DNA from: Sulfuricellaceae bacterium
Lineage (GTDB): Bacteria; Pseudomonadota; Gammaproteobacteria; Burkholderiales; Sulfuricellaceae
NCBI GenBank assembly: GCA_041674485.1
Contig: JBAYVP010000002.1
Location: 9,897 to 73,896, forward strand
Length of the DNA: 64,000 bases
Reading direction: 5' to 3'
Under the pieces are notes generated by a model. That model was not told where the DNA came from. It worked only from the letters and a program-made list of their open reading frames with translations, and made no database searches. Of the stretch, positions 3,578 to 29,201 are shown one piece after another; positions within the stretch are counted from its first letter, which is position 1; every line of letters starts with the position of its first letter. The translations under genes and the position numbers were made by a program.

Positions 3578-3590
3578 CTCAAGTTTGGTA

Positions 3591-9127: not shown

Positions 9128-9200
9128 CGCTATGCTGCTGACTTGTGTTTTATTCAATCTGGCGTAGCTGCTCAGGTCAAACGATTTGCTCACAGAACAA

Positions 9201-13170: not shown

Positions 13171-13283
13171 CTCTTTGCTTTAATCTTTGGGAACACTGAT
13201 ACGCAGAATCGCGAATTATAGGGCAAATTCAGATGCCGGATATTTGAACAAGAATATTATTTTTTGCCGCCACAAAACAAGAA

Positions 13284-13320
13284 AGGTATATCCCTGGAAT
13301 TTCTTCCGCAGGATATACCT
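13284..13320 (-). terminator. Probable rho-independent terminator after the NosZ-like/cytochrome c unit
   Basis: Perfect 10 bp inverted repeat AGGTATATCC-N17-GGATATACCT, 88 nt downstream of the 13409 stop. It is followed on the minus strand by UUCUUGUUUUGUGG. Confidence 0.5.
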
Positions 13321-13408
13321 CGCTCAAACTATCTCTTGCTGCTTCTGTATTTCCAGCCTACTTACACACCATAACCTTCAGGTGAGCTTTCGGCTTGAAA
13401 AATATTTA

Positions 13409-14371
13409 TTACTTAACCTTCACTGCGACTTCTGTCGGCTTCTTTCTGTTGCCGCCATCTACATATCCGCCGCCGACCAGTTCTGAACCAGGAGCACGCC
13501 CGGTCATTTCGGATTCAATCGTCTCTTGCAACTCCTTGAAATCTGCGCTCTTCGAAGCATTGAGTGCATCTACATCGCCCTTGATCGGCTTAAAGGTAGA
13601 TTTAGGGTTAAGGTATGCTTCCACGCTGGTGGGTGGCGGTACATCCTGCATCGCGCGGATAAAGGCAATAATGTCCCAAATGTCCTGATCCTGCAGCACG
13701 TTGCCCCAATTAGGCATGGACGAAGACAGCGATACTTGCTCGCCGCCACCCTTGATCACCGCATACAACTCAAGGTTGGTCTTCTTGTTCATGTAGTCGC
13801 CACGAGTCAATGTTCTTGGGCGCGGGTTCAATTCGGAAGCACTGGGGCCGTCACCATGCATCAACCAACCGTGGCAGGCGATACAGTAGGAGTAGTAGTA
13901 AGTCTTGCCATGGTTCGGGTCAGCACCAGCAACCAGCGTTGCGCCAAATTTTGGCGACCATTGGTTCGTCCACTGATCGTACACGCTCTTATCCGTCACA
14001 CCATCGGAAGCAGGAGCTTTTACGCGATCCCACAATTCTGTCTTGAGACCGCCTTTAGCAGCTCCGCCATAACCGCTGTCCGTTTTGAAGGTCTTGGTGT
14101 CGGAGTTGCTGCGCTTGCCTACACCCGTCAAATAATCGAACGGTGCGATACCATAGGTACTGCCGCCTTTACCTTGCTCCATGTCATCGCCTTCTTTCAG
14201 AAACGCGGCCGATGCTTTTTTCGCTTCATCTTCAGTTACGGTAGGGCACTCTACCTTTTGCCCGCCGGCGGTACAACGCTTCTCCGGTGCAGCAAAAGAT
14301 GACGCACTTCCCCACATCATGCCCAAACTTGTCACTGCGATCAGGCCTATTTTCAACTTGGCATTCTTCAT
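13409..14371 (-). CDS. Exported 320 aa monohaem c-type cytochrome
   Basis: Signal peptide MKNAKLKIGLIAVTSLGMMWGSASSFA. One CIACHGWLMHGDGP motif and a distal SSMPNW. RBS AGAGGGAG lies upstream. Sits directly downstream of the NosZ-like gene. Confidence 0.75.
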   Translation of the reverse strand: MKNAKLKIGLIAVTSLGMMWGSASSFAAPEKRCTAGGQKVECPTVTEDEAKKASAAFLKEGDDMEQGKGGSTYGIAPFDYLTGVGKRSNSDTKTFKTDSGYGGAAKGGLKTELWDRVKAPASDGVTDKSVYDQWTNQWSPKFGATLVAGADPNHGKTYYYSYCIACHGWLMHGDGPSASELNPRPRTLTRGDYMNKKTNLELYAVIKGGGEQVSLSSSMPNWGNVLQDQDIWDIIAFIRAMQDVPPPTSVEAYLNPKSTFKPIKGDVDALNASKSADFKELQETIESEMTGRAPGSELVGGGYVDGGNRKKPTEVAVKVK

Positions 14372-14449
14372 TTTTTAATTCTCCCTCTTTAGACCACCCC
14401 CGCAAGGGGATGGCCGGTTATTCATCCGTATCTGGGCGCAAAGAGTCAA

Positions 14450-16207
14450 TTACAGACCCTTCACACGCTCCGCTACAGTAAGCTGACCCTCTTCCAACAA
14501 ACCTGGCAGATGTTGCGCCTTAGCGTAATCACCCACAGCTAGGTTAGATGGCCCAGCCTTAGGATCGTCAACGAAGAACGCCGCTCTCATTTCCAGATGC
14601 AACGGTCCGCAGAAGTGCGTACAGAAGATTTCATATTCCCCTGCAATATCCGCCGTAAACTCATGCACTGCGGTTACACCGCGTGGCAAGTCCATGTTGG
14701 AACGCTGACCGTAAGGACCATAAATCGTCAAACCCATGGTGACGTCAGGATTCTTGGTGATGCCAGCCGCCTTGTCGATGTTGGTCGCAAACAACCGCAC
14801 CTTGTCGCCCTTGTTCACCCTGACCTGACGGGGAATGTAGCCGTAGCTGAAGGCCTTCATGTGAATTTCCTTCACGCCATCAACCAGCTTGACGCCCGGT
14901 GGTGTGGTTTCCTTGGGAATGAAGTAGCGCTTCGATAATGCGCGATGTGGAGGATCCAGCAGATCGGTTCTGCCATTGATCAGCCCACCCTGTTCCGCCT
15001 CGCCCTTGGTCCAATCCTTGACCAGATAGGACATCAGACCCTTGGCGTTATGCGGCTCACCATCCACCGGCATAATCTTCAAAGTCTTGCCGTAGGTTGG
15101 GCTCTTTTCGCGCGCATCCCACATCTCGAAGTTAACCGGGAATACGATACCGGTTGGGCTGAACAGGCCGGTTGAGAACTTGTTCAACGCCATCACATAG
15201 GAGTTATCCGGGGAGATGGAAATATGACCCGTTCTATAGTGGGTTGGGATTTCGTCAACCACTTCAAGTTTTTTCAGGTCGATCTTCACGTTAGCGTCCG
15301 CCACGAAGCAGCTCTCATAGGCGTACTTGGAAGTCAGGCCATCCGGGCTGTCTATGCCAGCACGGTAGGAACCGCCATCCTTGTTATATACGTCCATGAC
15401 CGAATGCAGAGGACCCGCGCAAGTCGGTAGAACCTTCTTGACTGCCAATTTCTGTGTGTCGATGATGGTCATGGTCGCGGAGAGCTTATCGCTCACCAGC
15501 ACCAAAGTGCTTTCAGGAATGACGTCGGTGCCGTGTGGGTTCTTGCCCACTGGTATTTCCTTGATCAGCTTGAATGGGCTGGTGGAAAACACGCCCACGG
15601 TAGAGTGGTAGTAGTTACCCGCAAAAACATATTTACCATCCCGGCTGGCGTCGATATAGTCCGGCGCGCTTGGGGAAGGACCCCAGTCGATCACTTCGGT
15701 CTTGCCCGTCTTGATCTCGACCTTGGCCATCTTGCCGCTATACTCACCCGTTCCAAACAGATGCTTGCCATCGGTGCTCATTGCAATATGGTGAACGCCA
15801 AACGGGAAAGGCAGCGCGATGACTCTGGCCAAATAGCCAGTTTGAATATCGAACTCGCAAATCGTGTTGGCACCCTTATCGTTCAGGTAAACGTATTTGC
15901 CGTCCGGCGTACCGTTCTTGTTGCCCTTGTTGCTTCCACCAAATGAAATTTCGTGCGTATCCACGCCGCAATCGATATGGCGATAGGTTTTGAAACTGGG
16001 AATACCGATGATCGCCATCTTGCCGTCCACACCGCCGGACGAGTACAACAGCATCGGATCAATGGTTGGCGTATCCTTGCCATCCGGAACCGCAACCTGC
16101 CACCCCGGTATGACTTGCGATTTATCCGCAGCCGCATTCGCTGTGCTAGCCATCAAGCAACTCATTGAAAGAGCGCTCATCATTAAAAATTTCGTTTTGT
16201 TTTGCAT
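14450..16207 (-). CDS. Divergent NosZ-like protein: 7-bladed Cu beta-propeller plus C-terminal CuA-type cupredoxin domain, Sec-type signal
   Basis: Start ATG 16207 after AAGGGGAG. Signal MQNKTKFLMMSALSMSCLMASTANA has no RR motif. NosZ blocks: YSSGGVDGKMAIIGIPSF, DGKYVYLNDKGAN, KNPHG, GPLHS, THYRTGH, GEPHN. CuA loop is CTHFCGPLHLEM (C-x3-C-x3-H-x2-M). It deviates at the HH pair (DTHE) and the first CuA His (DVTMGL). Confidence 0.75.
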   Translation of the reverse strand: MQNKTKFLMMSALSMSCLMASTANAAADKSQVIPGWQVAVPDGKDTPTIDPMLLYSSGGVDGKMAIIGIPSFKTYRHIDCGVDTHEISFGGSNKGNKNGTPDGKYVYLNDKGANTICEFDIQTGYLARVIALPFPFGVHHIAMSTDGKHLFGTGEYSGKMAKVEIKTGKTEVIDWGPSPSAPDYIDASRDGKYVFAGNYYHSTVGVFSTSPFKLIKEIPVGKNPHGTDVIPESTLVLVSDKLSATMTIIDTQKLAVKKVLPTCAGPLHSVMDVYNKDGGSYRAGIDSPDGLTSKYAYESCFVADANVKIDLKKLEVVDEIPTHYRTGHISISPDNSYVMALNKFSTGLFSPTGIVFPVNFEMWDAREKSPTYGKTLKIMPVDGEPHNAKGLMSYLVKDWTKGEAEQGGLINGRTDLLDPPHRALSKRYFIPKETTPPGVKLVDGVKEIHMKAFSYGYIPRQVRVNKGDKVRLFATNIDKAAGITKNPDVTMGLTIYGPYGQRSNMDLPRGVTAVHEFTADIAGEYEIFCTHFCGPLHLEMRAAFFVDDPKAGPSNLAVGDYAKAQHLPGLLEEGQLTVAERVKGL

Positions 16208-16633
16208 TATTACTCCCCTTGTTCGCAACTGCTTAATTAATAGGATAGCGTAATGTTTACGCCGACCTTCAAACCAACACATTTACTTAGCTGCCACTAC
16301 GATTGCTCTTACTCAACACTGTACTGCATTCACTCAAAACTGCCAGCTTCACCATAAACCTTGCAACATCTAACCATGCGACATATTGTCGCTGCGGCAT
16401 TTTGTCGCATCATGCCCAAAATGAATACTATCGTCAAGAGAGAGGTGAAAAAATTTACGTTAATGCGGGGTACAAAGAAAAAAGGCGATATTTTGCACAT
16501 AACGTGATGAACAAGGCGGGAGCAAAGCACATGCCGAGTGGCAGTTTCTCATCAAGCCCCATGAGAGATAGTGACGTTTAACCCCCGCTACCAAACCATC
16601 CCAATCCGCCAAATTCCACAAACACAACCTATC

Positions 16634-16867
16634 TCACTGCGTTCCACTGCCTCCAGCCTGAATGCCCTGTCCGTCAGACACCTGTTTCCCGCTGCGAACC
16701 GCACCTATGGCGAACACGCAAGCCCCAAATAAAATGAGAAAAATGAATTTTTCATAAGCGGGCAACCCGCCGCGCAGGTTCAGCAAGATATCCAGCACAC
16801 CCAAGGCCATGATGATAAAGCCGAACAATTTGGTCTTTACACCGCGCCTGACGTATTCATTTTCCAT
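16634..16867 (-). CDS. Small two-TM membrane protein
   Basis: ATG 16867 lies 6 nt after AAGGAG. Sequence MENEYVRRGVKTKLFGFIIMALGVLDILL...FIFLILFGACVFAIGAV. Confidence 0.45.
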   Translation of the reverse strand: MENEYVRRGVKTKLFGFIIMALGVLDILLNLRGGLPAYEKFIFLILFGACVFAIGAVRSGKQVSDGQGIQAGGSGTQ

Positions 16868-17027
16868 AGCACACTCCTTGCGGATAAACAGGTTGCGAGT
16901 TTCTTGGCAATGCCGCTCGTCCAACTTCGCCGCTGCGATTATTTCACTGTAAGCAAATAAGTGACGTAATCACCTTTTTCTTGTACTGACTGCATCCTGC
17001 TAGATGCGCCTCACAAAATCAAACACC

Positions 17028-17135
17028 GTCATTCTGACCCCTCGACAAGCCTAGGACAGGCTCAGGACAGGCTGACCTACGACCAGGCCGGAATCCAGTC
17101 TTATCGACAAACTGGACACCGGCCTCGCTGGCGTA
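17028..17135. repeat. REP-like palindromic element (GGCCGGAATCCAG...CTGGACACCGGCC type)
   Basis: Imperfect inverted repeat 17086-17098 / 17112-17124, preceded by a direct repeat ACAGGCTCAGGACAGGCT. It lies in the intergenic gap. Confidence 0.5.
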
Positions 17136-17157
17136 ACAATTTCAGAGGCCCCCTGAA

Positions 17158-18690
17158 TCAGGCCGCAGGTTTCTTGGCAGCGCTACGCGACCACCACAAC
17201 AGCCCTGCCACAAACAGTCCCGCGACCAGCAACGCCAGAACAATAGGCTTGGAACCGGTAGCCGGCTTCAACAACAGCCAATACCAGGTAGTCATGGTGT
17301 GCTTTGAGCCTTTCTCACTATTATTGCTGCCATCCCAAGCGGCAAAAGCAACCGGAATGAATTTACCCTCGACAAACTGAATATCCTTCTCGGGTGCGGA
17401 AGTAGTGAGCGGCCTGGTTATCAGAGCCTTCCAGGTACCATCGCTATAAATCGCCTTGGCCTTGAGCCCGACCCCGGTCGCATCGCGTTTCTCAATCGCC
17501 TTAAAACCTTTGCTGGTCATCAGACCGAGAGTTTCTGCCGCCTCAGTAGTGCCGCTCTTCCAGTGCCAGATGTTGACCGGATGCGCGTCATCTCCCATGC
17601 CGAAATAAGGCTTTTGCATTTCCTTGGGAATCACGACGGGCAGTTGCACCGCGACGCCGTCTTCCGCAATCGGCGCATCGGCCAGCTTACCCGCGCTATC
17701 ATCCCCCGGAATGCTCTTGGTGCGGTCATCCCACTCCAGCAGCATCGCAATCGACTTGCTGTTATACATCGCGCGCACCGTAATGGAGTCATTGGAAGGC
17801 GTGAAATAACGCTCCTCGCCGATGATTTGCGGAACCAGAGCGAAAGTGGTCGGGGTAGACTTTTCCCAGCGTTCATCTTCCGGCGTAGCGGGCAATTCGC
17901 CCTCCACCATGTCCGCCTTGACCACGGTGTTTTCCGCATTAACCAGTTTATCGGTCTTGGCTAATGACGCCACATAGTTAGCTACATGCCAAATTTCTTC
18001 GGTCGTGAGCTTCTTTTTACTCGCTGGATCGATGAAGGATGGCATCGCAGTACCAGGGATACCGGTAGAAACCCGCGTAAAGATGTCCTTCGGATCATTG
18101 CTGCCACGGAAAGTCCAAGGCTTGGTCAGATTGCGCGGCCAGGTACGCTCGCCGTTATCTCCTTTGAGCCGCTTGCTGGCGCTGCCCTTGCCCGACTTGC
18201 CATGACATTCCACGCAGCGGTCGCCATCCTCGAACAACTTCTTGCCCTTCTCGATACTCTCGGCAGAGCTTTTGACCTGCGAGCCGAAGTCGACCTGCTT
18301 GGCAGGAGGCTTGTCGAAACCTGCAAAGGTTTTGACATAAGCCACCAAGTCCCACATATCCTGCTCGTTCAGCAAGTCGCTCCAACCCGGCATGGCGGTG
18401 CCCGGCATACCATCGCGTATCATGCGATAGATGTCGTCATCATTGGGCGTCATATCTGCAAAATCGGATGTTTTGATCTTGTAGTTGCCGGAAGTGAAAT
18501 CCCGTGGCGGCGGATTGAGACGGTCTTTGGCCGCACCGTCACCCGCACCCTCCGCACCGTGACACCAGGTGCAGCGTTTGTCATAGATTATCTTGCCCTT
18601 GTCGGCTGCACCCGGTTTCGCCGAGGCTGACCCCGCCATAAACAGCGCAGCACAAAAGGTTAGGAAAGCCAGTTTTTTTACAGAACTCAT
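17158..18690 (-). CDS. Dihaem cytochrome c fused to an EB_dh (EbdC/NxrC/DdhC-type haem-b) domain and a C-terminal TM anchor
   Basis: Signal MSSVKKLAFLTFCAALFMAGSASA (ATG 18690). CTWCHG and CVECHG motifs. EB_dh-like block ITVRAMYNSKSIAMLLEWDDRT...DGVAVQLP...YFGMGDDAHPVNIWHWKSG. C-terminal helix IVLALLVAGLFVAGLLWW. Confidence 0.75.
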   Translation of the reverse strand: MSSVKKLAFLTFCAALFMAGSASAKPGAADKGKIIYDKRCTWCHGAEGAGDGAAKDRLNPPPRDFTSGNYKIKTSDFADMTPNDDDIYRMIRDGMPGTAMPGWSDLLNEQDMWDLVAYVKTFAGFDKPPAKQVDFGSQVKSSAESIEKGKKLFEDGDRCVECHGKSGKGSASKRLKGDNGERTWPRNLTKPWTFRGSNDPKDIFTRVSTGIPGTAMPSFIDPASKKKLTTEEIWHVANYVASLAKTDKLVNAENTVVKADMVEGELPATPEDERWEKSTPTTFALVPQIIGEERYFTPSNDSITVRAMYNSKSIAMLLEWDDRTKSIPGDDSAGKLADAPIAEDGVAVQLPVVIPKEMQKPYFGMGDDAHPVNIWHWKSGTTEAAETLGLMTSKGFKAIEKRDATGVGLKAKAIYSDGTWKALITRPLTTSAPEKDIQFVEGKFIPVAFAAWDGSNNSEKGSKHTMTTWYWLLLKPATGSKPIVLALLVAGLFVAGLLWWSRSAAKKPAA

Positions 18691-18709
18691 AATTATTCCC
18701 AATCGCAGA

Positions 18710-19492
18710 TTATTCATTTGCCCACGACCTTGGCCGTCTGCCCGTGTAGTCATACAGGTACAGGATAACTTTCCATATCTCATCCTCGGTCAAGAAGTTC
18801 TGCCAGATGGGCATGGATGAAATCCACGGCGCTGCCTCAGCAGGCAAGCCCGGGCCGCCGGTGGCGATACGCCAGAACAGGAAAGATTCCTGCAACTGCG
18901 CGATGGTGCCCACGTCCTGGAAATTGAGCGGCGTGGGGTTCAGACCCGATGCATAAGGTCCCTTGCCATCCAATTTGTCGCCGTGGCAATACTGGCAGTT
19001 TTGAATGTAAACATTGCCGCCCGCCTTGACTAGCTCGGCAAACTTTGCCAGATCTTCCTTCTCGAGTTTGCGATAGGGATTTTCCAGCTTGGTCAGGTCA
19101 AAGCTCTTGCCATACGCCTTAAACTTGTTGGGCGGCGCGGGGTGGATGGTGCGCAGCTCCACCGGTGCCTCGAAACTGGGCATCAGACTCGAGTAGGTGT
19201 AGTAGCCAGCCAGCAGCGGCACAATCACAAATACCACATTGCGCAGCATTTTCTTGGAGGGATCCTCGACCAAAGCCTTGATGGGACCCACCAGCTCCTG
19301 TGCCCCTTCCTCAGTGAAAGTAAATACCATCACAACCCCGGCCACCACGAACACCATATACATGGTAAGCAGGCTCTTGGGGATCAACTGTCCCAGAATC
19401 ACGTCGAAAACCAGGATGAAGCTGAAAAATACCCCCAGTATGACCAGGGCGAGTTGCAACAAACGGGGAATGCGTCTTTTCTGTGTTGTCAT
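18710..19492 (-). CDS. Membrane-bound monohaem cytochrome c (three N-terminal TM helices)
   Basis: TM helices LLQLALVILGVFFSFILVF, MYMVFVVAGVVMVFTF and VVFVIVPLLAGYY, then NCQYCHGDKLDGKGP and a distal SSMPIW. Confidence 0.75.
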   Translation of the reverse strand: MTTQKRRIPRLLQLALVILGVFFSFILVFDVILGQLIPKSLLTMYMVFVVAGVVMVFTFTEEGAQELVGPIKALVEDPSKKMLRNVVFVIVPLLAGYYTYSSLMPSFEAPVELRTIHPAPPNKFKAYGKSFDLTKLENPYRKLEKEDLAKFAELVKAGGNVYIQNCQYCHGDKLDGKGPYASGLNPTPLNFQDVGTIAQLQESFLFWRIATGGPGLPAEAAPWISSMPIWQNFLTEDEIWKVILYLYDYTGRRPRSWANE

Positions 19493-19494
19493 GA

Positions 19495-20304
19495 TTATTT
19501 CAACCCTGCCATATAATTAACCAGCAACTCAAGCTCTTGCGCTTTCAATTGCTCCCCATAGGTCTTAGGCATCATGCCCCCGGCAAATCCTTTTGCGATA
19601 ACCGCATCGGGATCGAGCAGCGCCTGGCGCAAATATTCCTTGCCCTGCTTTGCACCAATCTTGGACAGATCGGGCCCCAGCGCGCCAGTCTGATCCAGAA
19701 TTTTATGGCACATGCCACAGGTATACTTGGCGATGACCTCTTCAGCCGTTTTTAGCGGAGCGGCTTCTTCTGCCTTTGGCGCCTCTGCACCAGCGGCGGG
19801 CATGGCTGGAATAACGACCGTCACTTCGGCACCACCCGAGTCCTGGAGATAGGCGATAACAGCGGCAACTTCGGCCTCGTTCAGACCGATCCCACCACCC
19901 GTCACGTCCGGCATCGGGCTTTCGGTATCGTTGGTTCCCGCTTTACCAAATCCAGAAACCACATAGGCCGAAGGCTTAACCATCGCCTCGTGGATATACT
20001 CCTCGACCGTTTTTGCCGTACCTTTGTAATTGGGGCTCTTCATATGCTCATCTGCCTTCGCTCCGATCGTGTCGAGCATTGGCGCCCGGCCCATCGAGTT
20101 ATGGCACAGCGTACAAGTCCCCTTGCCGTTATATATCTTGCCGCCCAGCGCGATGAACTGATCCATAGTCATCGCGCCGAGATCCAGCTTCTCCTCTACG
20201 GGGGGCGGCGCGGGTTTAATCGTCGGGATGCCGAAATTCGAATACCCCCAGAATGCACCCACCATCAAGATACTGAAAATGGAAACCTTAAGAAAATTGG
20301 TCAT
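19495..20304 (-). CDS. Dihaem c-type cytochrome, membrane-anchored or exported
   Basis: CTLCHN and CGMCHK motifs. ATG 20304 forms an ATGA overlap with the stop of the bd-like gene (20301-20303). The longer TTG start at 20319 is less likely. Confidence 0.8.
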   Translation of the reverse strand: MTNFLKVSIFSILMVGAFWGYSNFGIPTIKPAPPPVEEKLDLGAMTMDQFIALGGKIYNGKGTCTLCHNSMGRAPMLDTIGAKADEHMKSPNYKGTAKTVEEYIHEAMVKPSAYVVSGFGKAGTNDTESPMPDVTGGGIGLNEAEVAAVIAYLQDSGGAEVTVVIPAMPAAGAEAPKAEEAAPLKTAEEVIAKYTCGMCHKILDQTGALGPDLSKIGAKQGKEYLRQALLDPDAVIAKGFAGGMMPKTYGEQLKAQELELLVNYMAGLK

Positions 20305-22226
20305 GCTTGTTCCTTCCAATAACCTTTTGCAACCACATGTTTGCCACTGATCGTGCTCAACCAGAACACAAAGATGACCATGGCCATGAATATGAGCGTA
20401 CCAGTCGATACGATGTTGGCCGCATAACCCAGATCCGGCGTAAAGGCATCCGGAGAATTATCGCGGAATACGTTGGACACATGCCAGTGCTGGCGGATGG
20501 CAGAACGGACATAGCCCATCAGCCCCATCAGCCAGGTGAAGGACACCGCCAGCAGAAACAGCGCGTACTGCGAACGGTTGGGCATACGCCCCCAGTGCAG
20601 CGGCGCCACTTCCTTCGCACCCTTGTACATGAACGAGTCAAGCACCAAGCTGAGAATGATGACAACCAAGGTGGTCAGAACCTGCGGTATGGAGGCCGCA
20701 ACCTTGTACACCGTATTGGTGAAATAACCGTAATAGATACCCAGCACCAGGATGTTGAGTGCGGCCGTAACAAACAGGGCGATCTGCGCCGCGTTGCCTG
20801 CTTTGACCCAGGAAACGGTAGCAATTTTATTGGCGCGCCGGTAATACAGGAAACTCAAGAAAGTGCCCAAAAGCAAAAAGTTCACCGCCGTGTTTTTGGC
20901 CGGCATGATGCCGAACACCCCCAGATATTGGTGGTACGGTCCGCCCAAGCTCTTGAGTTCTGAATTGGTCAGCACCAGCGTGTGCGGCGTGAACCACACC
21001 AGGAAAGCAGCCACCAGGACAATGGCGATATATTTGATCTTGGGGTTGTAGCGATAAGCGCCATCGCTGCGCCCTATACCACACCAGAGATAATAGTTGG
21101 CCGACAGGAACAGGGCGCCGATCAGTACGGCCTGGATGATGAACAGCCAGGCAAACGCGCCGCCCATCAGGGTGATACCCATTTGCTGGCTATAGGCATA
21201 TATTTCTGCGGTGAGATAGTAGCCCGCGAAAGGCAACGGCAACAGCGCCGCTATCGCGATGAAGTTGGCGTTGTAACCCATCCAGTCATAGTGGGCGCGC
21301 TCTTTTGCATTTTTGGCGCTAAGAAACTTGAAGGCGGCATAGGCACCCACAACCGAACCGCCATAAGCCACGTTGGCGACCACCCGGTGTATGTTGATCG
21401 GATTCCACAGGAAGTTGTGAAGCGCAGCCCAGGTATCGCCATGGAACACACCCGCCGGATCCAGGCCCGCCGGGCTCATCATGAAAGTCGTCCATGCGTT
21501 GGCCAGGAACATCAGCAAGCAACCGACCGCATTGAGCAGCAAACCAAAAGTCAGGTGTACCCACTTCTTGTTGCCACCCTGGAGCCAGTGCCAGCCATAA
21601 TAATAAATATACAAGACCGCGCTCTCGGCAAAGAACAGCAGCGCATACGCCCACATGCTTTCCTTGAAGACTGCGGCCATATATTTGAATAAATCCGGGT
21701 AGAACAGGATCAGACCGAAGGATAGCAAGCCGCCCAGAAGCGCGGTGAGCGAGTAGGCGGTGATACTGACCTTGATGAACTCGTAAGCCATGTTATCATA
21801 GCGCTCATCCCGTGTCCACATACCGATGGCCTCGATGATGAACACAAACATCGGTACCGCCACGACAAACGCACCAAACCACAGATGCAACTGCGCTACC
21901 AGCCATACTGCCACCCGTGAATTCACCCCTTGAATCTTGGGGTAATCCGCCTCGGTCAATTTTGGCACGGGGATGGAAACCCCCGCCGCCGCATCTGGAG
22001 CGGCATCTGCCTTGGCCGCAGCAGCAGCGTGTGCAGGTGCGGGTGCGGCGGGTGCCGCTGCGGATGCTGTCGCTGCGGCAGGCGCTTCAGCAGCCGCAGG
22101 CGCGACCGCAGACGCTGCTGCCTCGGATGCGTTCGCGACAGGCGTGAAGGCAGGCAGCATAAACATGGCGAAAACCGCCAATAAAAATGCCCCGCCGATT
22201 AATCTTATATTATTTCTTGTTAGCAA
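20301..22226 (-). CDS. Cytochrome bd subunit I-like (CydA-like, 'bd-like oxidase') polytopic membrane protein with an Ala/Pro-rich N-terminal linker
   Basis: Collinear with CydA: VAQLHLWFGAFVVAVPMF (His19 region), FFAESAVLYIYYYGW (FLESTF..FFFGW), VHLTFGLLLNAVGCLLMFLANAWTTFMMSP, NIHRVVANVAYGG (His186 region). No cydB follows. N-terminal low-complexity stretch ASEAAASAVAPAAAEAPAAATASAAAPAAPAPAHAAAAAKADAAPDAAAG. Confidence 0.8.
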   Translation of the reverse strand: MLTRNNIRLIGGAFLLAVFAMFMLPAFTPVANASEAAASAVAPAAAEAPAAATASAAAPAAPAPAHAAAAAKADAAPDAAAGVSIPVPKLTEADYPKIQGVNSRVAVWLVAQLHLWFGAFVVAVPMFVFIIEAIGMWTRDERYDNMAYEFIKVSITAYSLTALLGGLLSFGLILFYPDLFKYMAAVFKESMWAYALLFFAESAVLYIYYYGWHWLQGGNKKWVHLTFGLLLNAVGCLLMFLANAWTTFMMSPAGLDPAGVFHGDTWAALHNFLWNPINIHRVVANVAYGGSVVGAYAAFKFLSAKNAKERAHYDWMGYNANFIAIAALLPLPFAGYYLTAEIYAYSQQMGITLMGGAFAWLFIIQAVLIGALFLSANYYLWCGIGRSDGAYRYNPKIKYIAIVLVAAFLVWFTPHTLVLTNSELKSLGGPYHQYLGVFGIMPAKNTAVNFLLLGTFLSFLYYRRANKIATVSWVKAGNAAQIALFVTAALNILVLGIYYGYFTNTVYKVAASIPQVLTTLVVIILSLVLDSFMYKGAKEVAPLHWGRMPNRSQYALFLLAVSFTWLMGLMGYVRSAIRQHWHVSNVFRDNSPDAFTPDLGYAANIVSTGTLIFMAMVIFVFWLSTISGKHVVAKGYWKEQA

Positions 22227-22339
22227 GATTTACTCCCGATTTTTTCGATATACCGTATTAGAAAGGCCAGTCCGGTTCCAGGCACGCTTGCACCATAAAC
22301 ATTAAGGAAGCACCTCCTCAAGCGAAGGCAACCAATCAC

Positions 22340-22456
22340 TTAATGGTTAAACGTCAGCGTCAACCCCTGAAGATGCATCATGGCGAAATCCAAACCAAAA
22401 AATACGGCGCCAAAGACAACAAACGCACCGACGAATGGTAAAAAATAATCTTTCAT
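22340..22456 (-). CDS. Possible 38 aa single-TM peptide between the 63 aa ORF and the bd-like gene
   Basis: MKDYFLPFVGAFVVFGAVFFGLDFAMMHLQGLTLTFNH, read by hand from the minus strand (too short for the ORF track). It fills the gap just upstream of the bd-like gene. There is no homology evidence. Confidence 0.3.
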   Translation of the reverse strand: MKDYFLPFVGAFVVFGAVFFGLDFAMMHLQGLTLTFNH

Positions 22457-22460
22457 GTCG

Positions 22461-22652
22461 TTACGCCCTCAAAAACCACGTAAAAAAAACAATCAATGCA
22501 ATCAGGGTCGCCACAAAAAAAGCCGGCCCCGCCCAAGGGTACTTCGATTTTTCACTCTCTTCTGGTATCGGATTATGGTAGAACCCGGTGGCATCGATAA
22601 ACTTGTCGTTCGGATTCTCGCCGTCCACCTCATGTGTTGCATTTGCGCTCAT
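22461..22652 (-). CDS. Small single-TM protein at the head of the bd-like operon
   Basis: 63 aa: hydrophilic N-terminus, then AGPAFFVATLIALIVFFTWFL. Confidence 0.4.
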   Translation of the reverse strand: MSANATHEVDGENPNDKFIDATGFYHNPIPEESEKSKYPWAGPAFFVATLIALIVFFTWFLRA

Positions 22653-22704
22653 ACTCCACCCCTTCTATCAGCGATTTACCTGCTTGTTGCGGACACAAAA
22701 CCAC

Positions 22705-22732
22705 CCCAAGGGGAAGAAACCTCCCCCTTGGG
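22705..22732 (-). terminator. Rho-independent terminator separating the cytochrome c pair from the bd-like operon
   Basis: CCCAAGGGG-N10-CCCCTTGGG (9 bp perfect stem), followed on the minus strand by GUGGUUUUGUGU. Confidence 0.55.
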
Positions 22733-22876
22733 ATATCGTCTAGCTTCTTATAAGACAAAGTAATACAAGATCAGGCAACTGAAGATGACATTTATCATCA
22801 TCCCGGAAAAAATAAGCCCGTCAGCAAGATATTTTTTGTTCAGGTATTTTTTCATTCAGGCCACGCGTCCTCTATC

Positions 22877-23227
22877 CTATTTGGCCAGTTTGCGGATATA
22901 GGCCAGCAGCCCGTCCACATCCGCTGCACTGAGAGTAGCTCCCCAAGGCGGCATCAAAGGCGACTTACTGATGGCGGGGCCGCCATCCCTGATGACCGTC
23001 TTGATATCTTCATCGGTACGCTTGGCCATATCTTCCTTGTTGGTGAAATTACGCGGATCGGTGGCAAAATCCTTGGTGACGTTAACACCCTTGCCATCTC
23101 CTGCGGTTCCGTGGCACTGGGCGCAATAAAAATCAAATATCTCTTTTGTATCTGCTGCTTGCGCTGAGCCTGCTGCACCCATAACCAAGCCAAACACCGT
23201 AGCTGCTACTATTACAAATCTCGACAT
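22877..23227 (-). CDS. Class I monohaem c-type cytochrome
   Basis: ATG 23227 lies 7 nt after GGAGGA. Signal MSRFVIVAATVFGLVMGAAGSAQA. CAQCHG motif and a distal LMPPW. Confidence 0.8.
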   Translation of the reverse strand: MSRFVIVAATVFGLVMGAAGSAQAADTKEIFDFYCAQCHGTAGDGKGVNVTKDFATDPRNFTNKEDMAKRTDEDIKTVIRDGGPAISKSPLMPPWGATLSAADVDGLLAYIRKLAK

Positions 23228-23251
23228 GAGTTTATCCTCCATTCGTTCGCA

Positions 23252-23905
23252 TTACTCGAAAGAAGCCACATACGCAGCTACGTTCTCCAGGTCTTTCGGA
23301 TTAAGCACGCTGCCAAAGTCCGGCATATCCCGAACCGGTTTGAATGCTTTGATGTTTGCCATATAGGCGTAAATCCAATCAGGATTCAAGCGCTTGCTGG
23401 CTCCAACCAAGGAAGGTCCGCTCTTCCCACCGCGTACTGCGCCCTTATCCGAGTATTCGTGACATCCGCTACATGGCATTTTCTTGGCAAAAATATTCTT
23501 GCCCTGCACGTTACTGCCCGCCTTGATCACGCCCGCCTTGACTTCCTTCGAGGTCAGCCCCATCAGGAATTCCGAAACTGCAGCCGCATCTCCAGCAGAC
23601 ATCTTGGGATGATCACCCGCGTTCTTGTCGGTGAGCGAGTTATATTTCATCGGGCGAATCGGCTTGGGAGCCTGCAGCCACGCCGTGAGCCAATCCTTCT
23701 GGAATTTACTGCCGGCATAAAATAGTTCCGGCCCCTTCTTTGCCAATTGATCCGCTATCGTTTTTTCTTTCGCTGGACCATCGGTGTAATGGCAACTGGC
23801 GCAACTCTTCTTAAAAATCGCATCTCCACCAGCCGCGTAGCTGGGCGCTGTCATTGTGACCAGCAAAGCCGCCCCAAGGGAAACGGTGACTGCGAGCAAT
23901 CTCAT
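23252..23905 (-). CDS. Dihaem c-type cytochrome
   Basis: Signal MRLLAVTVSLGAALLVTMTAPSYA. CASCHY and CSGCHE motifs. Confidence 0.8.
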   Translation of the reverse strand: MRLLAVTVSLGAALLVTMTAPSYAAGGDAIFKKSCASCHYTDGPAKEKTIADQLAKKGPELFYAGSKFQKDWLTAWLQAPKPIRPMKYNSLTDKNAGDHPKMSAGDAAAVSEFLMGLTSKEVKAGVIKAGSNVQGKNIFAKKMPCSGCHEYSDKGAVRGGKSGPSLVGASKRLNPDWIYAYMANIKAFKPVRDMPDFGSVLNPKDLENVAAYVASFE

Positions 23906-24212
23906 GTCATAACTCCTTTCGATTTTTTACTTCTGTGGATTTGAAAATAAAGGCGAACTGATACGCGTTATTATTATTTTGTTTTTTATTATTTTTAAGT
24001 ACAAGCCAGCAACAGCCTGCACGGTACAACTCATACACCACACCAGATGGCTTGGTATCGCATACGGCTACCCATGCAGCTTTATAGCTCCTTATTGGAT
24101 GGCGGGCGAAATATAGCACACCAACTTTTGTTGTCAACGCCAAAATAATCCAAGCAATTAACTCAAGTATTAAGTTATTGAGATTAGAGCCGCTCCAAGA
24201 GATATAGAGCAA

Positions 24213-25640
24213 TCAATCGATGATCTTGACGCGTTGCCCCGCCTGCAGTTCGCCGCCCGGGTATTGCGCGTTGATCAGGCGCAGGTAGCTTTCCGCCGAC
24301 TTGCCGAGCGGCGAGTTTTGCGCGAGCCTGGCGTAGGTATCGCCCTGCCGCGCAGTGATGATGCGGATGCCGAGCGGCTTGACCAGCTTGCGTTCGGCTG
24401 CGGTAATTGCATGGAAGCTGCGCACCGTATCAAAAATTTGATTGCGGTGCGCATTCAGGCCGCCGCGCGCCTTGGCCTGCGCTTGCAGGATGTAGGCGCT
24501 TTTATTGTGGTAGATCACACCGCCCATCACGTTAGGCAATTCGAAAGTCGCGGCGGGCAGGCCGTCGAGATCGAGGCGCTGAATATTCGCGCTTGAACCG
24601 ACCAGACGGCGCGCGTATTCAACCGGGGTGCCGCGCGGTTTCTGATCCATTTTCATTTGCAGCATGGCCTCGCCGCCGGGGCTGACGGCAACCAGCGCTT
24701 CGGGTTGGTTATGCACCTGCCAGGTTTCCGGGAGTTGCAGCGCAATGCCCAGCTCTCCGTGGTAAAAACGGTTGTTGCGCACCACACCCTGATCGGTATT
24801 ATCGTTGAACACCAAGCCGTCGATGGCAGCGAGAAATTCGCTGCGGCCTTCAAATGGCGAGGCGGGCGCCAGCTTGTCCGCCTCACCGACCACCTGCTTC
24901 AGGCGCGTGTCGTTGTCCGGATGCGTGGAGAACAGGCCGGAGTAGCGACGCGGCTCGCGCCCTTCCTGCTTGGCCAGCTCCGCATCCTTCAATTCCTGGT
25001 TTTTCAATACCCCGAGAACCTTGATAATGGCTTGCGGGTCGTAATCGGAACGCGCCAGATATTGCGCGCCCAAACGGTCGGCTTCGAGCTCGTGTTCGCG
25101 CCCGTAGCCGGACAGCAACGCGCCACCGAGAATGTTGGCCAAGTTTTGCCCGGCATTGGAGCCCAGTTCAGGCACGAAGATCGAAGCGACCGCCAGCCCG
25201 ATATTCGCGGCTTGTGCGGCGCTTTGCTGGCGCACGCCGTGGCGTGACGTGACGTGGCCGATTTCATGCCCCACCACGGCAGCCAGTTCCGCCTCGCTAT
25301 TGAGATAGGCCATGATGCCGCGCGTGACATAGACATAGCCGCCGGGCAGCGCGAAGGCATTAATTTCGGGAGAATCCAGTACGGCAAAGTGATATTGCAG
25401 GTTGGGGCGATGACTATTTTTTGCGAGCTTCTGGCCGACGCGGTTGACGTAATCCTGCAACACCTTTGATTCGTAAACCTGGTATTGCTTGCCGATCACC
25501 TCCTCGTTGTATTGGCGTCCGAGGGCGATTTCCTGGCTTTCCGACATCATCACAAAATCGCTTTGTCCGGTCACCGGATTCGGCGCGCAGCCGGCCAGCG
25601 GCAAAATGGCCAAGACAAGGGCAATAGTCAAAAGTCGCAT
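24213..25640 (-). CDS. M48-family Zn metalloprotease lipoprotein with a C-terminal LysM domain
   Basis: ATG 25640 after AGGAG. Lipobox ILPLAGC. HEIGH zinc motif (VVGHEIGHVTSRHG). LysM-like end ARQGDTYARLAQ...LQAGQRVKIID. Confidence 0.85.
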   Translation of the reverse strand: MRLLTIALVLAILPLAGCAPNPVTGQSDFVMMSESQEIALGRQYNEEVIGKQYQVYESKVLQDYVNRVGQKLAKNSHRPNLQYHFAVLDSPEINAFALPGGYVYVTRGIMAYLNSEAELAAVVGHEIGHVTSRHGVRQQSAAQAANIGLAVASIFVPELGSNAGQNLANILGGALLSGYGREHELEADRLGAQYLARSDYDPQAIIKVLGVLKNQELKDAELAKQEGREPRRYSGLFSTHPDNDTRLKQVVGEADKLAPASPFEGRSEFLAAIDGLVFNDNTDQGVVRNNRFYHGELGIALQLPETWQVHNQPEALVAVSPGGEAMLQMKMDQKPRGTPVEYARRLVGSSANIQRLDLDGLPAATFELPNVMGGVIYHNKSAYILQAQAKARGGLNAHRNQIFDTVRSFHAITAAERKLVKPLGIRIITARQGDTYARLAQNSPLGKSAESYLRLINAQYPGGELQAGQRVKIID

Positions 25641-25693
25641 GTCAGCTCCTGTTCGATATTGTAGTATCGGATGGCATTGTCGCCGATCCAAAT

Positions 25694-25720
25694 AAAAAAG
25701 GCAGCAAAGCTGCCTTTTTT
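25694..25720. terminator. Bidirectional hairpin terminator downstream of rpmE
   Basis: AAAAAA-GGCAGC-AAA-GCTGCC-TTTTTT. Confidence 0.8.
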
Positions 25721-25742
25721 ATTAAACAGTTGCGCAAGTTTT

Positions 25743-25958
25743 CTACGCAGCAGCTTTGGTGCCATATTTCTGGCGGAATTTATCGATACGACCAGCGGTA
25801 TCGACGATCTTCTGTGTACCGGTATAGAACGGGTGACATTCGGAGCAAACTTCGACCTTCAGTTCCGGCTTGCTCATAACTGACTTAGTCTTGAAGCTGT
25901 TGCCGCAACTGCACGTCACGGTGATTTCCTGGTAATTCGGGTGAATATCTGCTTTCAT
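25743..25958 (-). CDS. rpmE: 50S ribosomal protein L31
   Basis: [26 protein letters not shown]...[16 protein letters not shown] is the canonical L31 sequence with a CxC...CxxC zinc ribbon. Confidence 0.95.
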
Positions 25959-26173
25959 TTTTTTCCTTGCGATGTATCGGTGCGGCGGGTGTACGCACTC
26001 ACGGGGCGCGCATTATCCATAAAAAGATGGGGAGGCGCAAATTTTTATAGACACGCCCGGGTTGCAGGGATTGCATCGGTATTGCCAGGCGCTGGTCGTG
26101 ACGGCTCGTATCACATAAACTCCGCATATTGATTGGCTTCAAGCCGGATCAGCCAGAACATGGAACAAATATT

Positions 26174-27427
26174 ATGCATAGACTGAGCCGCAATGATTAC
26201 CGGACGCTGGTGTTAGCCGCGCTGGGTGGTGCGCTGGAGTTTTACGACTTCATCATTTTCGTGTTCTTCGCGGTAGTGATCGGGCAGCTATTCTTTCCGC
26301 CCGACATGCCGGACTGGCTGCGCCAGTTGCAGACTTTCGGTATTTTTGCAGCAGGTTATTTGGCGCGGCCGCTGGGCGGCATCGTGATGGCGCACTTCGG
26401 CGATATGCTGGGTCGCAAGCGCATGTTCATGTTGAGTATTTTCCTGATGTCCGTGCCGACGCTGGCGATCGGCCTGCTGCCGACCTATGCCGTCATCGGC
26501 ATCTGGGCACCGCTGCTGCTGCTCGCCCTGCGCGTGCTGCAAGGGGCGGCGATTGGCGGGGAAGTGCCAGGTGCCTGGGTATTCGTCTCCGAACATGTGC
26601 CGCCGCGCCATGTCGGCTTTGCCTGCGGCACGCTGACCGCCGGGCTGACCGGCGGAATCCTGCTCGGCTCGCTGGTGGCGACCGCAGTCAACAAGCTGTA
26701 TGCGCCCGCCGAATTGCTCGCGGAAGGCTGGCGCGTGCCATTCATTATCGGCGGTGTCTTTGGCTTGCTGTCTGTCTGGCTGCGCCAGTGGCTGCATGAA
26801 ACACCGGTATTCAAGGAGATGCAGGCGCGCCAGGCGCTGGCAGACGAATTGCCGCTGAAAACGGTATTGCGCGAACACCGCCCCGCCGTGATCCTGACCA
26901 TGCTGATGACCTGGCTGCTGTCCGCAGCGGTGGTGGTGATGATATTGATGACCCCGACGCTGGTGCAAAAACTCTATGGAATTTCAGCCGCCACCGCCTT
27001 GCAGGCGAACAGCATCGCGACCTTGTTCCTGAGTTTGGGCTGCGTGGCCTTCGGTGCGCTGGCTGACCGTTACGGCGCGGGGCGGGTACTGATGGCCGGC
27101 TGCACGATGTTGGGCGCCACTTCGGCGCTGTTCTACCAGCAGATATCGGTCGCGCCGCAGAACATCAATGGAATGTATGCCCTGTGCGGTTTTTTTGTCG
27201 GCGTGATCGGCGTGGTGCCAAGCGTCGCAGTCAAGGCTTTTCCCCCGGTGGTGCGCTTTTCCGGATTGTCATTTTCCTACAATGTGGCCTATGCGGTGTT
27301 CGGCGGGCTCACTCCGGTGATAGTGAGCCTGATGCTGCCGCTCGATCCTTTGGCGCCGGCGCATTACGTGGTAGCGTTGAGTGCAATGGGCGTGATGATC
27401 GGGATGCATTTGTGGCGGCGCGGGTAA
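26174..27427 (+). CDS. MFS transporter, metabolite:H+ symporter (ProP/KgtP-like) family
   Basis: LGGALEFYDFIIFVFF, GGIVMAHFGDMLGRKRMF and LRVLQGAAIGGEVPGA are typical MHS-family signatures. Twelve hydrophobic segments. Confidence 0.85.
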   Translation: MHRLSRNDYRTLVLAALGGALEFYDFIIFVFFAVVIGQLFFPPDMPDWLRQLQTFGIFAAGYLARPLGGIVMAHFGDMLGRKRMFMLSIFLMSVPTLAIGLLPTYAVIGIWAPLLLLALRVLQGAAIGGEVPGAWVFVSEHVPPRHVGFACGTLTAGLTGGILLGSLVATAVNKLYAPAELLAEGWRVPFIIGGVFGLLSVWLRQWLHETPVFKEMQARQALADELPLKTVLREHRPAVILTMLMTWLLSAAVVVMILMTPTLVQKLYGISAATALQANSIATLFLSLGCVAFGALADRYGAGRVLMAGCTMLGATSALFYQQISVAPQNINGMYALCGFFVGVIGVVPSVAVKAFPPVVRFSGLSFSYNVAYAVFGGLTPVIVSLMLPLDPLAPAHYVVALSAMGVMIGMHLWRRG

Positions 27428-27595
27428 CGTGCTGTCGGCATCGACACGAGATGCGCATATCGCCATCCACGTCAAAATACAGCTCCCGTTAAGGCTATAA
27501 TGCATCCCGCGAGGATGGAGCAAGCAACCCATACCCATGGTCATTTCGATGACGGCAGCAAACGCACCGAATTCAAGCTACAGGATCACCCACAC

Positions 27596-28875: not shown

Positions 28876-28931
28876 CTTTCTGCTCAGCCTGCCAATCAAT
28901 TCATTTGTAGCCAATGACAAGTTAAATCGTA

Positions 28932-29124: not shown

Positions 29125-29201
29125 CCAGAATTTCCATAAAACAAAGGCCATGCCGTTACCGGGAAAGCGTCCCCGTCTTCGGTCGGCATGCAAAGTGAAA
29201 C

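Follow-up and report, generated by a model that had tools for sequence, protein, structure and literature searches.

Introduction

Nitrite oxidisers, anammox bacteria and manganese oxidisers possess cytochrome bd-like complexes, whose role has been a question since 2010. Their genes are among the most transcribed ones, and in organisms without haem-copper oxidases the complex is presumed to be the terminal oxidase. In this study, we explored a gene cluster encoding such a bd-like membrane protein in a 64,000-nt stretch of DNA from a Sulfuricellaceae bacterium (GenBank assembly GCA_041674485.1, contig JBAYVP010000002.1), which is called the window hereafter and to which all coordinates refer. 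The encoded complex is very probably of the OR-N2 type within the cytochrome bd superfamily. The cluster belongs to a bioinformatically defined and already catalogued kind, of which it represents the proteobacterial form.

Murali, Gennis and Hemp divided the bd superfamily into qOR, OR-C and OR-N (Murali et al. 2021). In their account OR-N1 and OR-N2 have 14 transmembrane (TM) helices, OR-N2 is often the sole CydA-like gene of its operon, and OR-N2 operons hold multiple cytochromes c together with a homologue of EbdC. The residue row given there for OR-N2 reads Tyr, Glu, His, His, Ser and Trp, with Ser or Ala at the position of Glu445, and Proteobacteria are already listed among the holders of OR-N. 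The cluster of Nitrospira, Nitrospina and Kuenenia has been described as a 14-TM bd-like protein, in which helices replace the Q-loop, accompanied by two membrane-bound cytochromes c and a subunit termed alt-NxrC (Lücker 2010/2013; Mundinger 2019). In Nitrospira this cluster ranks within the top 40 genes by transcription, and the corresponding complex of Manganitrophus, named 'TO_1' in the papers on that organism, is transcribed at the 98th percentile. An 'octahaem cytochrome complex' has furthermore been reported from Ferrigenium straubiae KS (bioRxiv 10.64898/2026.01.22.701106, section 6.3.1), where a unit of two cytochromes is described besides a 'membrane-associated octahaem cytochrome heterotetramer' and a resemblance to CydA (PDB 7NKZ) is noted. 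That the kind has been catalogued and that the cluster has been noted in F. straubiae was therefore already known. New here is a conserved unit which is larger than earlier drawn, by two cytochromes c and four small membrane proteins.

Fold and conserved residues of the CydA-like subunit

The central gene of the cluster (20301..22226, minus strand) encodes a CydA-like protein of 641 aa, which is related to CydA by Pfam, AlphaFold2 and Foldseek and agrees with the OR-N2 type in its residue signature. The Pfam family Cyt_bd_oxida_I (PF01654) matches at 3e-16, as the preliminary description of this locus had led us to expect, and covers residues 103-336 only, i.e. profile positions 2-231 of 418. 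In a profile search of the PDB the matches (5doq_A, 1e-10) were likewise confined to CydA TM1-4, and in pairwise alignments to PDB CydA chains of Geobacillus and of actinobacterial origin only TM1-5 align. Hydropathy and the AlphaFold2 model yield 14 TM helices, namely TM0 (residues 2-27), which is either a TM helix or a signal peptide, and 13 others, and the positive-inside rule is obeyed at all loops. TM0 is followed by the Ala/Pro-rich linker (residues 34-85) that had been recognised before.

The AlphaFold2 model reached a pLDDT of 84.4 and a pTM of 0.83 with an alignment that included Nitrospirota sequences (A4), and a shallower alignment of the two proteobacterial paralogue families only (A1) gave an unusable model with a pLDDT of 56.6. 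A set of 17 very diverse representatives (A3) was aligned with MAFFT L-INS-i, the auto mode being too gappy. Searched against the PDB with Foldseek, the model returned CydA chains in all of the top ten places (E 5.5e-9 to 1.3e-5, 450-590 columns aligned, target-normalised TM-score up to 0.62), and CydB chains appeared only at E ~1e-2. We also considered a fused or hidden CydB and an internal duplication, and rejected both: the comparison of N- and C-terminal sub-alignments by hhalign was empty, its sole match being an artefact of overlapping columns. Since the fold matches are to CydA only, no internal repeat is found and no CydB sequence matches, we regard the protein as CydA-like throughout, with four inserted helices, and not as a CydA-CydB fusion. 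A separate cydB, which had been reported as missing, is indeed not encoded among the in-frame, non-shadow open reading frames (ORFs) of at least 150 aa in the window, none of which is a 9-TM CydB-like protein. The same holds for the conserved synteny of 80 related loci, the best 80 from a pattern and tblastn scan that found relatives in 396 GTDB species genomes.

Residues were mapped via pairwise alignment to the PDB CydA chains and via residue spacing, and not via the reference sequence of the OR-N2 authors. H114 corresponds to His21 of Geobacillus and His19 of Escherichia coli, and is invariant in the 67 sequences of alignment A4 from Pseudomonadota and Nitrospirota. H224 is the equivalent of His126 and H280 that of His186. 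E201 is the equivalent of Glu107 and lies inside the 'FFAESAVLYIYYYGW' block, where the Glu is followed by the conserved tyrosines Y208 and Y210 in a Tyr-x-Tyr arrangement. The His19, His186 and 'FFAESAVLYIYYYGW' blocks read earlier from the sequence have thus been retrieved at H114, H280 and E201, and the haem-ligating His is kept after alignment. Besides H114, E201, Y208, H224 and H280, the residues invariant in all 67 sequences are E132, Y194, M249, R281, D314, M349 and M354 in the first part of the protein and H415, E423, H432, M441, K444, R464, W545, M567, M570, R574, S575, R578 and H582 in the second. By topology, H114, H280, H415, H432, M441 and H582 lie near the periplasmic face, and H224 and D314 near the cytoplasmic face.

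The long Q-loop is missing, in agreement with the preliminary description: only 30 periplasmic residues (329-358) follow TM6, without a conserved Lys/Glu pair, and equivalents of Lys252 and Glu257 are not found in the protein. The traits of the canonical, quinol-oxidising bd enzymes (qOR) are therefore not shared, as there is neither a Q-loop nor a CydB partner. What is shared with the superfamily as a whole is the TM1-4 core homologous to CydA with its kept His19 ligand. With the mapping via PDB CydA chains, Y194, E201, H224, H280, S575 and W581, together with Y208/Y210, reproduce the OR-N2 signature of Supplementary Table 6 of Murali et al. 2021. The 14 TM helices and an operon that holds multiple cytochromes c and an EbdC homologue, and no PetABD, likewise agree with OR-N2.

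Extent and composition of the gene cluster

The preliminary description had placed the locus at 17158-22652. Its six minus-strand ORFs are all found where it had put them, but the conserved unit reaches further on both sides and spans about 16634-24137, with the genes that we call c217, c121 and tm96 outside the earlier borders. All genes of the cluster lie on the minus strand, in the order c217, c121, s35, s63, s38, CydA-like gene, c274, c260, EBdh and tm96.

Three membrane-bound cytochrome subunits follow the CydA-like gene. The first of them, c274 (19495..20304; the ORF 19495-20319 has 274 aa), is a membrane-anchored dihaem cytochrome c with CxxCH motifs at residues 69 and 201. Its start overlaps the stop of the CydA-like gene as ATGA (20304-20301), an overlap that had already been noticed and by which c274 is predicted to be translationally coupled to the CydA-like gene. 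The second, c260 (18710..19492; 260 aa), has about three TM helices and, with its single CxxCH motif at residue 166, is a monohaem cytochrome c. The third, EBdh (17158..18690), combines a signal peptide, a dihaem cytochrome c, a DOMON-like EB_dh haem b domain and a C-terminal TM helix. Its ORF (17158-18783) has 541 aa, and translation most probably starts at ATG 18690, judging from the sequence, which gives 510 aa with a signal peptide.

At the other end of the cluster, c217 (23252..23905) is a periplasmic dihaem cytochrome c with a signal peptide, with CxxCH at residues 35 and 145 and matches to Pfam Cytochrome_CBB3/Cytochrom_C, and c121 (22877..23242) is a periplasmic monohaem cytochrome c, also recognised by Pfam, with CxxCH at residue 40. 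The haem motifs counted earlier (two, one and two CxxCH in the 274-, 260- and 541-aa proteins) could be reproduced. These five motifs of c274, c260 and EBdh become eight with c217 and c121 included, so that the cluster would in total provide about eight haems c, one periplasmic haem b and the haems of the CydA-like subunit.

Four small membrane proteins complete the cluster. The 35-aa single-TM peptide s35 (22748..22855), absent from the preliminary description, was recognised by its conservation in tblastn, as it is found between c121 and s63 in 43 of the 80 loci (45-91% identity, a few opposite-strand matches among them possibly being spurious). The 63-aa peptide s63 (22461..22652) has one C-terminal TM helix by hydropathy, is detected in 46 of the 80 loci and matches no Pfam or NCBIfam family. 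The 38-aa peptide s38 (22340..22456), by hydropathy also with a single TM helix, is detected in 54 of the 80 loci, and Nitrospirota loci have an ORF of 47-48 aa at the same position. Downstream of EBdh, tm96 (16634..16867; 77 aa from ATG 16867) encodes a protein with two TM helices by hydropathy and without a family match, which is found at the same position in 43 of the 80 loci. The lower recovery of the small peptides (43-54 of 80 loci) is expected given the short tblastn queries. Judged from its position, not from homology, s38 is possibly a CydX/CydS-like accessory subunit. The earlier statement that no cydX is present consequently needs qualification, since three conserved single-TM peptides precede the CydA-like gene and could play that structural role.

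Upstream of c217 lies a candidate sigma-70-like promoter (24110..24137, minus strand; TTGACA-16-TATATT with extended TG), a consensus match only, which agrees at 11 of 12 hexamer positions and is the top site within 13000-26200. Between s35 and s63, a pattern match marks a G+C-rich hairpin of 15 bp with a T run behind it (22702..22735, minus strand), which may act as an internal terminator or attenuator giving soluble cytochromes and membrane subunits different levels. With a promoter-like site 5' of c217 and this internal hairpin, the cluster may form one transcript or two, c217-c121-s35 and s63 to tm96. No Rfam family was found in 6000-34000.

The EB_dh subunit

The EB_dh domain assigned to EBdh in the preliminary description was recovered with PF09459 at 1.6e-25. 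The dihaem part of the protein resembles a dihaem cytochrome of anammox bacteria (PDB 6h5l_B, 5e-40), and the EB_dh part aligns to EbdC (2ivf_C, 2.4e-12) with both haem b ligands kept, M396 corresponding to Met108 and K494 to Lys201. TIGR03477 matches at 4.5e-33 with 114 bits, which is under its cut-off of 170. From these matches EBdh is predicted to be a membrane-anchored subunit of the alt-NxrC type with two haems c and one haem b. As stated before for the window, no molybdopterin catalytic subunit accompanies it: none of the scanned ORFs of at least 150 aa in the window carries a Molybdopterin domain, and no molybdopterin gene occurs among the conserved neighbours of the 80 related loci. 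Since the window is without a molybdoenzyme, EBdh does not seem to act here as the gamma subunit of a type II dimethyl sulfoxide (DMSO) reductase.

Occurrence in other genomes

CydA-like relatives were found in 396 GTDB species genomes, mainly of Pseudomonadota. The occurrence in a proteobacterium, held to be notable in the preliminary description, is consequently not unusual, and it had been anticipated by the listing of Murali et al. 2021 and by the F. straubiae preprint. The hosts include Gallionellaceae, Zetaproteobacteria, Magnetococcales, Acidiferrobacteraceae, Arenicellales, Rhodospirillales and Hyphomicrobiales. Their habitats are microoxic or oxygen-minimum ones, comprising iron oxidisers, groundwater and metagenome-assembled genomes (MAGs) from the eastern tropical North Pacific (ETNP), the Arabian Sea, Saanich Inlet and the Black Sea. 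The closest locus belongs to a Gallionella sp. MAG, in which the gene order is identical and most proteins are 93-99% identical, with 81% for s63.

For synteny we considered as full-flank loci those with at least 8 kb on both sides (n=41). In every one of them c217, c121, c274, c260 and EBdh are present (41/41 each). Over Beta-, Gamma-, Alpha- and Zetaproteobacteria and Magnetococcales the CydA-like protein keeps 71-94% identity (best tblastn segment), and c260 is the best conserved partner with 67-96%. In Pseudomonadota, the complete module is under very strong purifying selection in hosts without nitrite oxidoreductase (NXR).

Towards Nitrospirota the identity of the CydA-like protein falls to 34-52%. 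One Nitrospirota MAG (locus L164) holds, in the same order as the window, a 48-aa ORF, a bd-like gene (50.6%), homologues of c274 (28%) and c260 (40.5%) and a gene for a protein with two cytochrome c domains and EB_dh (34.6%), with a second bd-like gene nearby. The likeness to the bd-like and EB_dh clusters of Nitrospira, Nitrospina and anammox bacteria that the preliminary description had drawn is borne out by this gene order and by the OR-N2 residue pattern. Other homologues stand differently: the Nitrospira proteins P0513 and P0430 are encoded by orphan bd-like genes without cytochrome partners. CydA-like homologues of 39-51% identity occur in other contexts in L161 and L162 (Nitrospira tepida), L163 and L165; some Nitrospira bd-like genes are orphans with only a 47-aa ORF ahead, and in L165 the bd-like gene lies directly upstream of an NxrA-like molybdopterin gene. 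Since the Nitrospira homologues sit in such differing neighbourhoods, the bd-like scaffold serves several contexts.

A tandem second, paralogous bd-like operon is present in 20 of the 41 full-flank loci, mostly marine ones, and occurs in many marine Alpha- and Gammaproteobacteria (e.g. L031, L032, L036, L040 and L043-L047). The CydA homologues of the two operons are ~44% and the EB_dh subunits ~34% identical. In L031 (2066-7792 and 9125-9766 of that locus) and L032 a SCO1/SenC copper-chaperone gene lies inside the second operon, and a HEAT-repeat protein is encoded upstream. Loci with the duplicate operon never carry L-NosZ too. SCO1 genes occur in or beside the operon in 11 of the 80 loci, none of which has an L-NosZ match in the fetched flanks.

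Genomic surroundings

The gene adjacent to the cluster (14450-16282, minus strand), described before as NosZ-like, is, as judged by NCBIfam NF052460 (750.6 bits, cut-off 700), a genuine clade III lactonase-type nitrous-oxide reductase, L-NosZ. Its partner is a cytochrome c of 320 aa (cytc320; 13409-14371, minus strand) from the conserved L-nos neighbourhood. The weight given to this adjacency in the preliminary description was too high. L-NosZ adjoins the bd-like operon in 14 of the 41 full-flank loci. In a reverse search from L-NosZ, 80 metagenome loci were fetched. Of the 25 loci with flanks of 5 kb or more on both sides, 8 had the operon within these flanks, and it was missing from all 8 loci in which L-NosZ shares less than 60% identity with that of the window. 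Because of these counts we regard the adjacency as lineage-specific and without obligate coupling. An obligate partnership of L-NosZ with the operon was thereby ruled out.

In the 80 metagenome loci, L-NosZ is steadily accompanied by h180, a split cytochrome b, h230, two beta-propellers, cytc320 and h173, and upstream by h310, h148 (NrfF/CcmH-like), h280, thioredoxin-like proteins and CcdA. The window holds every one of them. The split cytochrome b genes at 400-2862 travel with L-NosZ and not with the bd-like operon. The L-nos cluster of the window comprises, besides L-NosZ and cytc320, the segments 400-6670 and 27500-33831, both on the plus strand. Its beta-propellers are of the Vgb-lyase/NHL type, and its maturation-like set consists of h310, the NrfF/CcmH-like protein, a cytochrome c, two ResA, CcdA, Sco, PCuAC and TlpA; the Sco and PCuAC genes lie ~9 kb from the bd-like cluster. 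Several MAGs of Gallionella, Zetaproteobacteria and Magnetococcales show the same arrangement. According to a 2023 pangenome built from 103 genomes of Gallionellaceae, nosZ is absent from the family. A complete clade III N2O-reductase cluster in Gallionellaceae bears on a possible role of iron oxidisers as N2O sinks.

On the far side of L-NosZ, three minus-strand genes with domain matches form a trio whose membership in the bd-like cluster is uncertain: a protein with two Usp and two PCP_red domains (11347-13170), an AhbD/NirJ2-like radical SAM/SPASM protein (rSAM) with three PCP_red (BchB C-terminal) domains (9281-11560), and a HemY-type protoporphyrinogen/coproporphyrinogen oxidase (7670-9193; TIGR00562, 239 bits, cut-off 98). 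At least two of the three stand beside the bd-like operon in 27 of the 41 full-flank loci, and in some lineages the L-NosZ cassette is inserted between cluster and trio. The composition of the trio suggests a dedicated module for tetrapyrrole synthesis, tailoring or delivery, and it may act in haem supply or tailoring. A cofactor pathway specific to OR-N2 is, however, weakened as an explanation, because the trio adjoins L-NosZ without the operon in three loci (L106, L112 and L128). In the literature we found no account of PCP_red fusions and no link of bd-like proteins to AhbD or HemY.

Further away lies a flagellar region (34704-50762). It encodes two PilZ proteins that resemble YcgR, and a flagellin of unusual length (925 aa) that carries the Flagellin_IN motif (47985-50762). 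CcdB (37344-37805), HipA (43726-45000) and a Transposase_31 gene (46274-47227) are encoded within it.

Functional interpretation

We propose, on what we judge to be close to an even chance, that the complex is an O2-reducing, cytochrome c-dependent terminal oxidase. The periplasmic cytochrome c pool would supply the electrons, which in an iron oxidiser would ultimately stem from Fe(II). Via the c-type haems and the high-potential haem b of EB_dh they would arrive at a b558-like haem, for which H280 is a likely ligand and M441 probably a further one. From there they would reach a haem site in the TM1-4 bundle near the periplasmic face, with H114 as ligand, where a proton-consuming reduction would take place with protons delivered from the cytoplasm via the retained E201/H224 path. 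The charge separation would generate proton-motive force without pumping, as in canonical bd oxidases, and the likeliest substrate would be O2 at low concentration. All of these steps are modelled on the established bd-oxidase mechanism, with its haems near the periplasmic face and its Glu107/His126 proton path. Cytochrome c is favoured as electron source because of the eight CxxCH motifs, the kept Met/Lys ligands of haem b and the lack of a quinol-binding Q-loop. Proton-consuming catalysis is favoured because none of the 67 sequences, which come from two phyla, deviates at E201, H224 or H114. O2 is favoured as acceptor because the hosts inhabit microoxic environments and oxygen-minimum zones and because expression in aerobic lithotrophs is very high. 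In F. straubiae the cluster is transcribed, according to the section of the preprint devoted to it (bioRxiv 10.64898/2026.01.22.701106).

Several observations weigh against this proposal. The canonical di-haem O2 site is not intact: Glu99 is lost, with Y194 at its position, and 'S575-A-I-R-Q-H-W581' is a remnant of 'E445-x-G-R-Q-P-W' in which the haem-b595 ligand Glu445 is lost. The literature still calls the family uncharacterised, as had been stated in the preliminary description, with no member purified or assayed. Strictly anaerobic anammox bacteria are reported to hold the same cluster. The Nitrospira literature favours reverse electron flow for this paralogue and reserves the term 'terminal oxidase' for another one with proposed Cu ligands. 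Where the F. straubiae preprint treats the cluster (bioRxiv 10.64898/2026.01.22.701106), it reports equal expression in microoxic and in anoxic denitrifying autotrophic growth, the additional presence of cbb3 and aa3 oxidases in strain KS, and a predicted quinone site, the latter being a weak COFACTOR prediction.

Part of this evidence would fit a complex that links cytochrome c to the quinone pool in the manner of alternative complex III, either uphill, as reverse electron transport, or downhill, and without a gaseous substrate. We regard such a link as possible but unlikely. It has been proposed for the orthologues of Nitrospira, Nitrospina and anammox bacteria and, in the section of the preprint concerned, for the F. 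straubiae cluster, whose O2-independent expression would be in line with it, as would the presence of the cluster in anaerobic anammox bacteria. The hosts are, moreover, mainly lithoautotrophs on high-potential donors, which require reverse electron transport (Gallionellaceae, Zetaproteobacteria, Acidiferrobacteraceae, Nitrospirota, Nitrospinota and Manganitrophaceae). However, the recognisable features of a quinol site, i.e. the Q-loop and Lys252/Glu257, are all missing, and the protein aligns to CydA over TM1-5 only. All conserved haem ligands lie near the periplasmic face, so that no transmembrane haem pair results, and the uphill reaction would have to proceed without an obvious ion-translocating module. 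The cytoplasm-facing E201/H224 path would, judging from the bd mechanism, even oppose quinone reduction on the periplasmic side. A quinone role is therefore considered mechanistically less natural than O2 reduction.

Reduction or scavenging of NO or another N-oxide, in which cytochrome c electrons would convert NO to N2O and thereby feed L-NosZ where it is adjacent, appears improbable to us. Expression under denitrifying conditions in F. straubiae, as given in the preprint's treatment of the cluster, would agree with it. The same is true for the bona fide L-NosZ beside the operon in 14 of the 41 full-flank loci, the window included, for the presence of the cluster in NO-handling anammox bacteria and nitrite oxidisers, and for the abundance of the hosts in oxygen-minimum zones. 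High-potential donors also suit the NO/N2O couple. However, the link to L-NosZ is lineage-specific (0/8 for distant L-NosZ) and most operons have no L-NosZ nearby, and cNOR is already common in Gallionellaceae. No nir or nor genes occur among the in-frame ORFs of at least 150 aa in the window, and no FNR/Dnr consensus box with at most one mismatch lies near the relevant promoters, the window-wide excess of two-mismatch matches being uninformative. Furthermore, we know of no bd-family enzyme that acts as a physiological NO reductase.

Still further down in probability, and in our view very improbable, stands a membrane anchor or conduit for a soluble partner, either L-NosZ or an NXR-like molybdoenzyme encoded elsewhere, with EB_dh as gamma subunit. 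This idea draws on the literature, in which it has been proposed, on the role of EB_dh proteins as gamma subunits of EbdABC, NXR and related enzymes, and on the NxrA-like molybdopterin gene beside a bd-like gene in Nitrospirales (L165). It is at odds with the lack of molybdopterin ORFs in the window and among the conserved neighbours of the 80 loci and with the fact that L-NosZ keeps its own partners (h180, split cytochrome b, h230, beta-propellers, cytc320) even where the operon is missing, and it would leave the conserved proton-path residues without purpose. The PF01654 match and the public annotation of homologues as 'cytochrome ubiquinol oxidase subunit I' might suggest an ordinary cytochrome bd that oxidises quinol and has a cydB elsewhere or an overlooked one. 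This reading is effectively refuted by the partial profile match (positions 2-231 of 418), the missing Q-loop, 14 instead of 9 TM helices, the loss of Glu445 and Glu99, the lack of a CydB-like ORF in the window and in the 80-locus synteny, and merely marginal CydB fold matches with no part of the protein left for a fused CydB.

A more far-reaching version of a terminal reductase can also be envisaged, to which we assign a low probability. The complex could represent a new class on the bd scaffold, in which the periplasm-side H415, H432 and H582 together with M249, M354, M567 and M570 would replace Glu445 and bind an extra metal, e.g. copper, or a modified haem. Hints of a dedicated cofactor supply come from the SCO1 genes, which lie within the operon or next to it in 11 of the 80 loci, and from the trio, which accompanies it in 27 of the 41 full-flank loci. 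Should this reading hold, iron, nitrite and manganese oxidisers would use, when O2 is very low, a cytochrome c:O2 (or NO) reductase of a haem-copper-like or novel-haem kind whose evolution was independent of that of the haem-copper oxidases.

Whatever the acceptor, the completeness of the module in Pseudomonadota without NXR implies that the EB_dh subunit is not merely an NXR anchor and that the complex is an autonomous respiratory unit. Compared with Nitrospira or anammox bacteria, culturable proteobacterial hosts are also easier to handle in biochemical and genetic work. F. straubiae KS is one example, and others may be found among cultured relatives of the MAGs of Mariprofundus and Magnetococcus in which the cluster occurs.

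Relation to known systems

With canonical CydABX (E. coli, Geobacillus, Mycobacterium) the complex shares the fold of subunit I, the TM1-4 core and the b558 His ligand on TM5. In contrast to it, CydB and the Q-loop are missing, four extra TM helices and an N-terminal anchor are present, Glu99 and Glu445 are lost, and H415, H432, H582, M249, M354, M567 and M570 are found as extra invariant residues on the periplasmic side. The electron donor is presumably cytochrome c and not quinol.

The F. straubiae locus (L023, on the chromosome of strain KS) contains c217, c121, small peptides, CydA (80% identity), c274, c260, EBdh and tm96, and the c217 and c121 pair corresponds to 'functional unit 1' of the preprint. 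L-NosZ does not lie beside the cluster there, unlike in the window. In the preprint section on this complex, no tie is made to OR-N2 or to the Nitrospira clusters, and the haem b of EB_dh and the small peptides are not mentioned.

With 'bd-like_3/alt_NxrC_2' of Nitrospira moscoviensis the window shares, as checked on L164, the same four-gene core in the same order, i.e. the bd-like protein, a TM dihaem cytochrome c, a TM monohaem cytochrome c, and a cytochrome c with EB_dh haem b and TM anchor; the second bd-like copy of L164 is as described for Nitrospira bd-like_4. The clusters of Nitrospira, Nitrospina and Kuenenia are embedded in or near NXR genes, and a role in anchoring NXR or in reverse electron flow has been ascribed to them, whereas the window is without NXR or another molybdoenzyme and offers L-NosZ, the haem-related trio and Cu/thiol maturation genes as neighbours.

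With OR-N2 as defined by Murali et al. 2021 the complex shares the 14 TM helices, the lack of a Q-loop or quinol site, equivalents of His19, Glu107, His126 and His186, Tyr at the position of Glu99, Ser at that of Glu445, the lack of a second CydA- or CydB-like subunit, and several cytochromes c with an EbdC homologue in the operon. From the Nitrospirota members of OR-N2 the complex differs in its proteobacterial host, in a sequence identity of 34-52% and in its N-terminal Ala/Pro-rich linker. Beyond the common core, two cytochromes c encoded upstream, three small peptides with a TM helix and a protein with two TM helices are conserved in the proteobacterial version.

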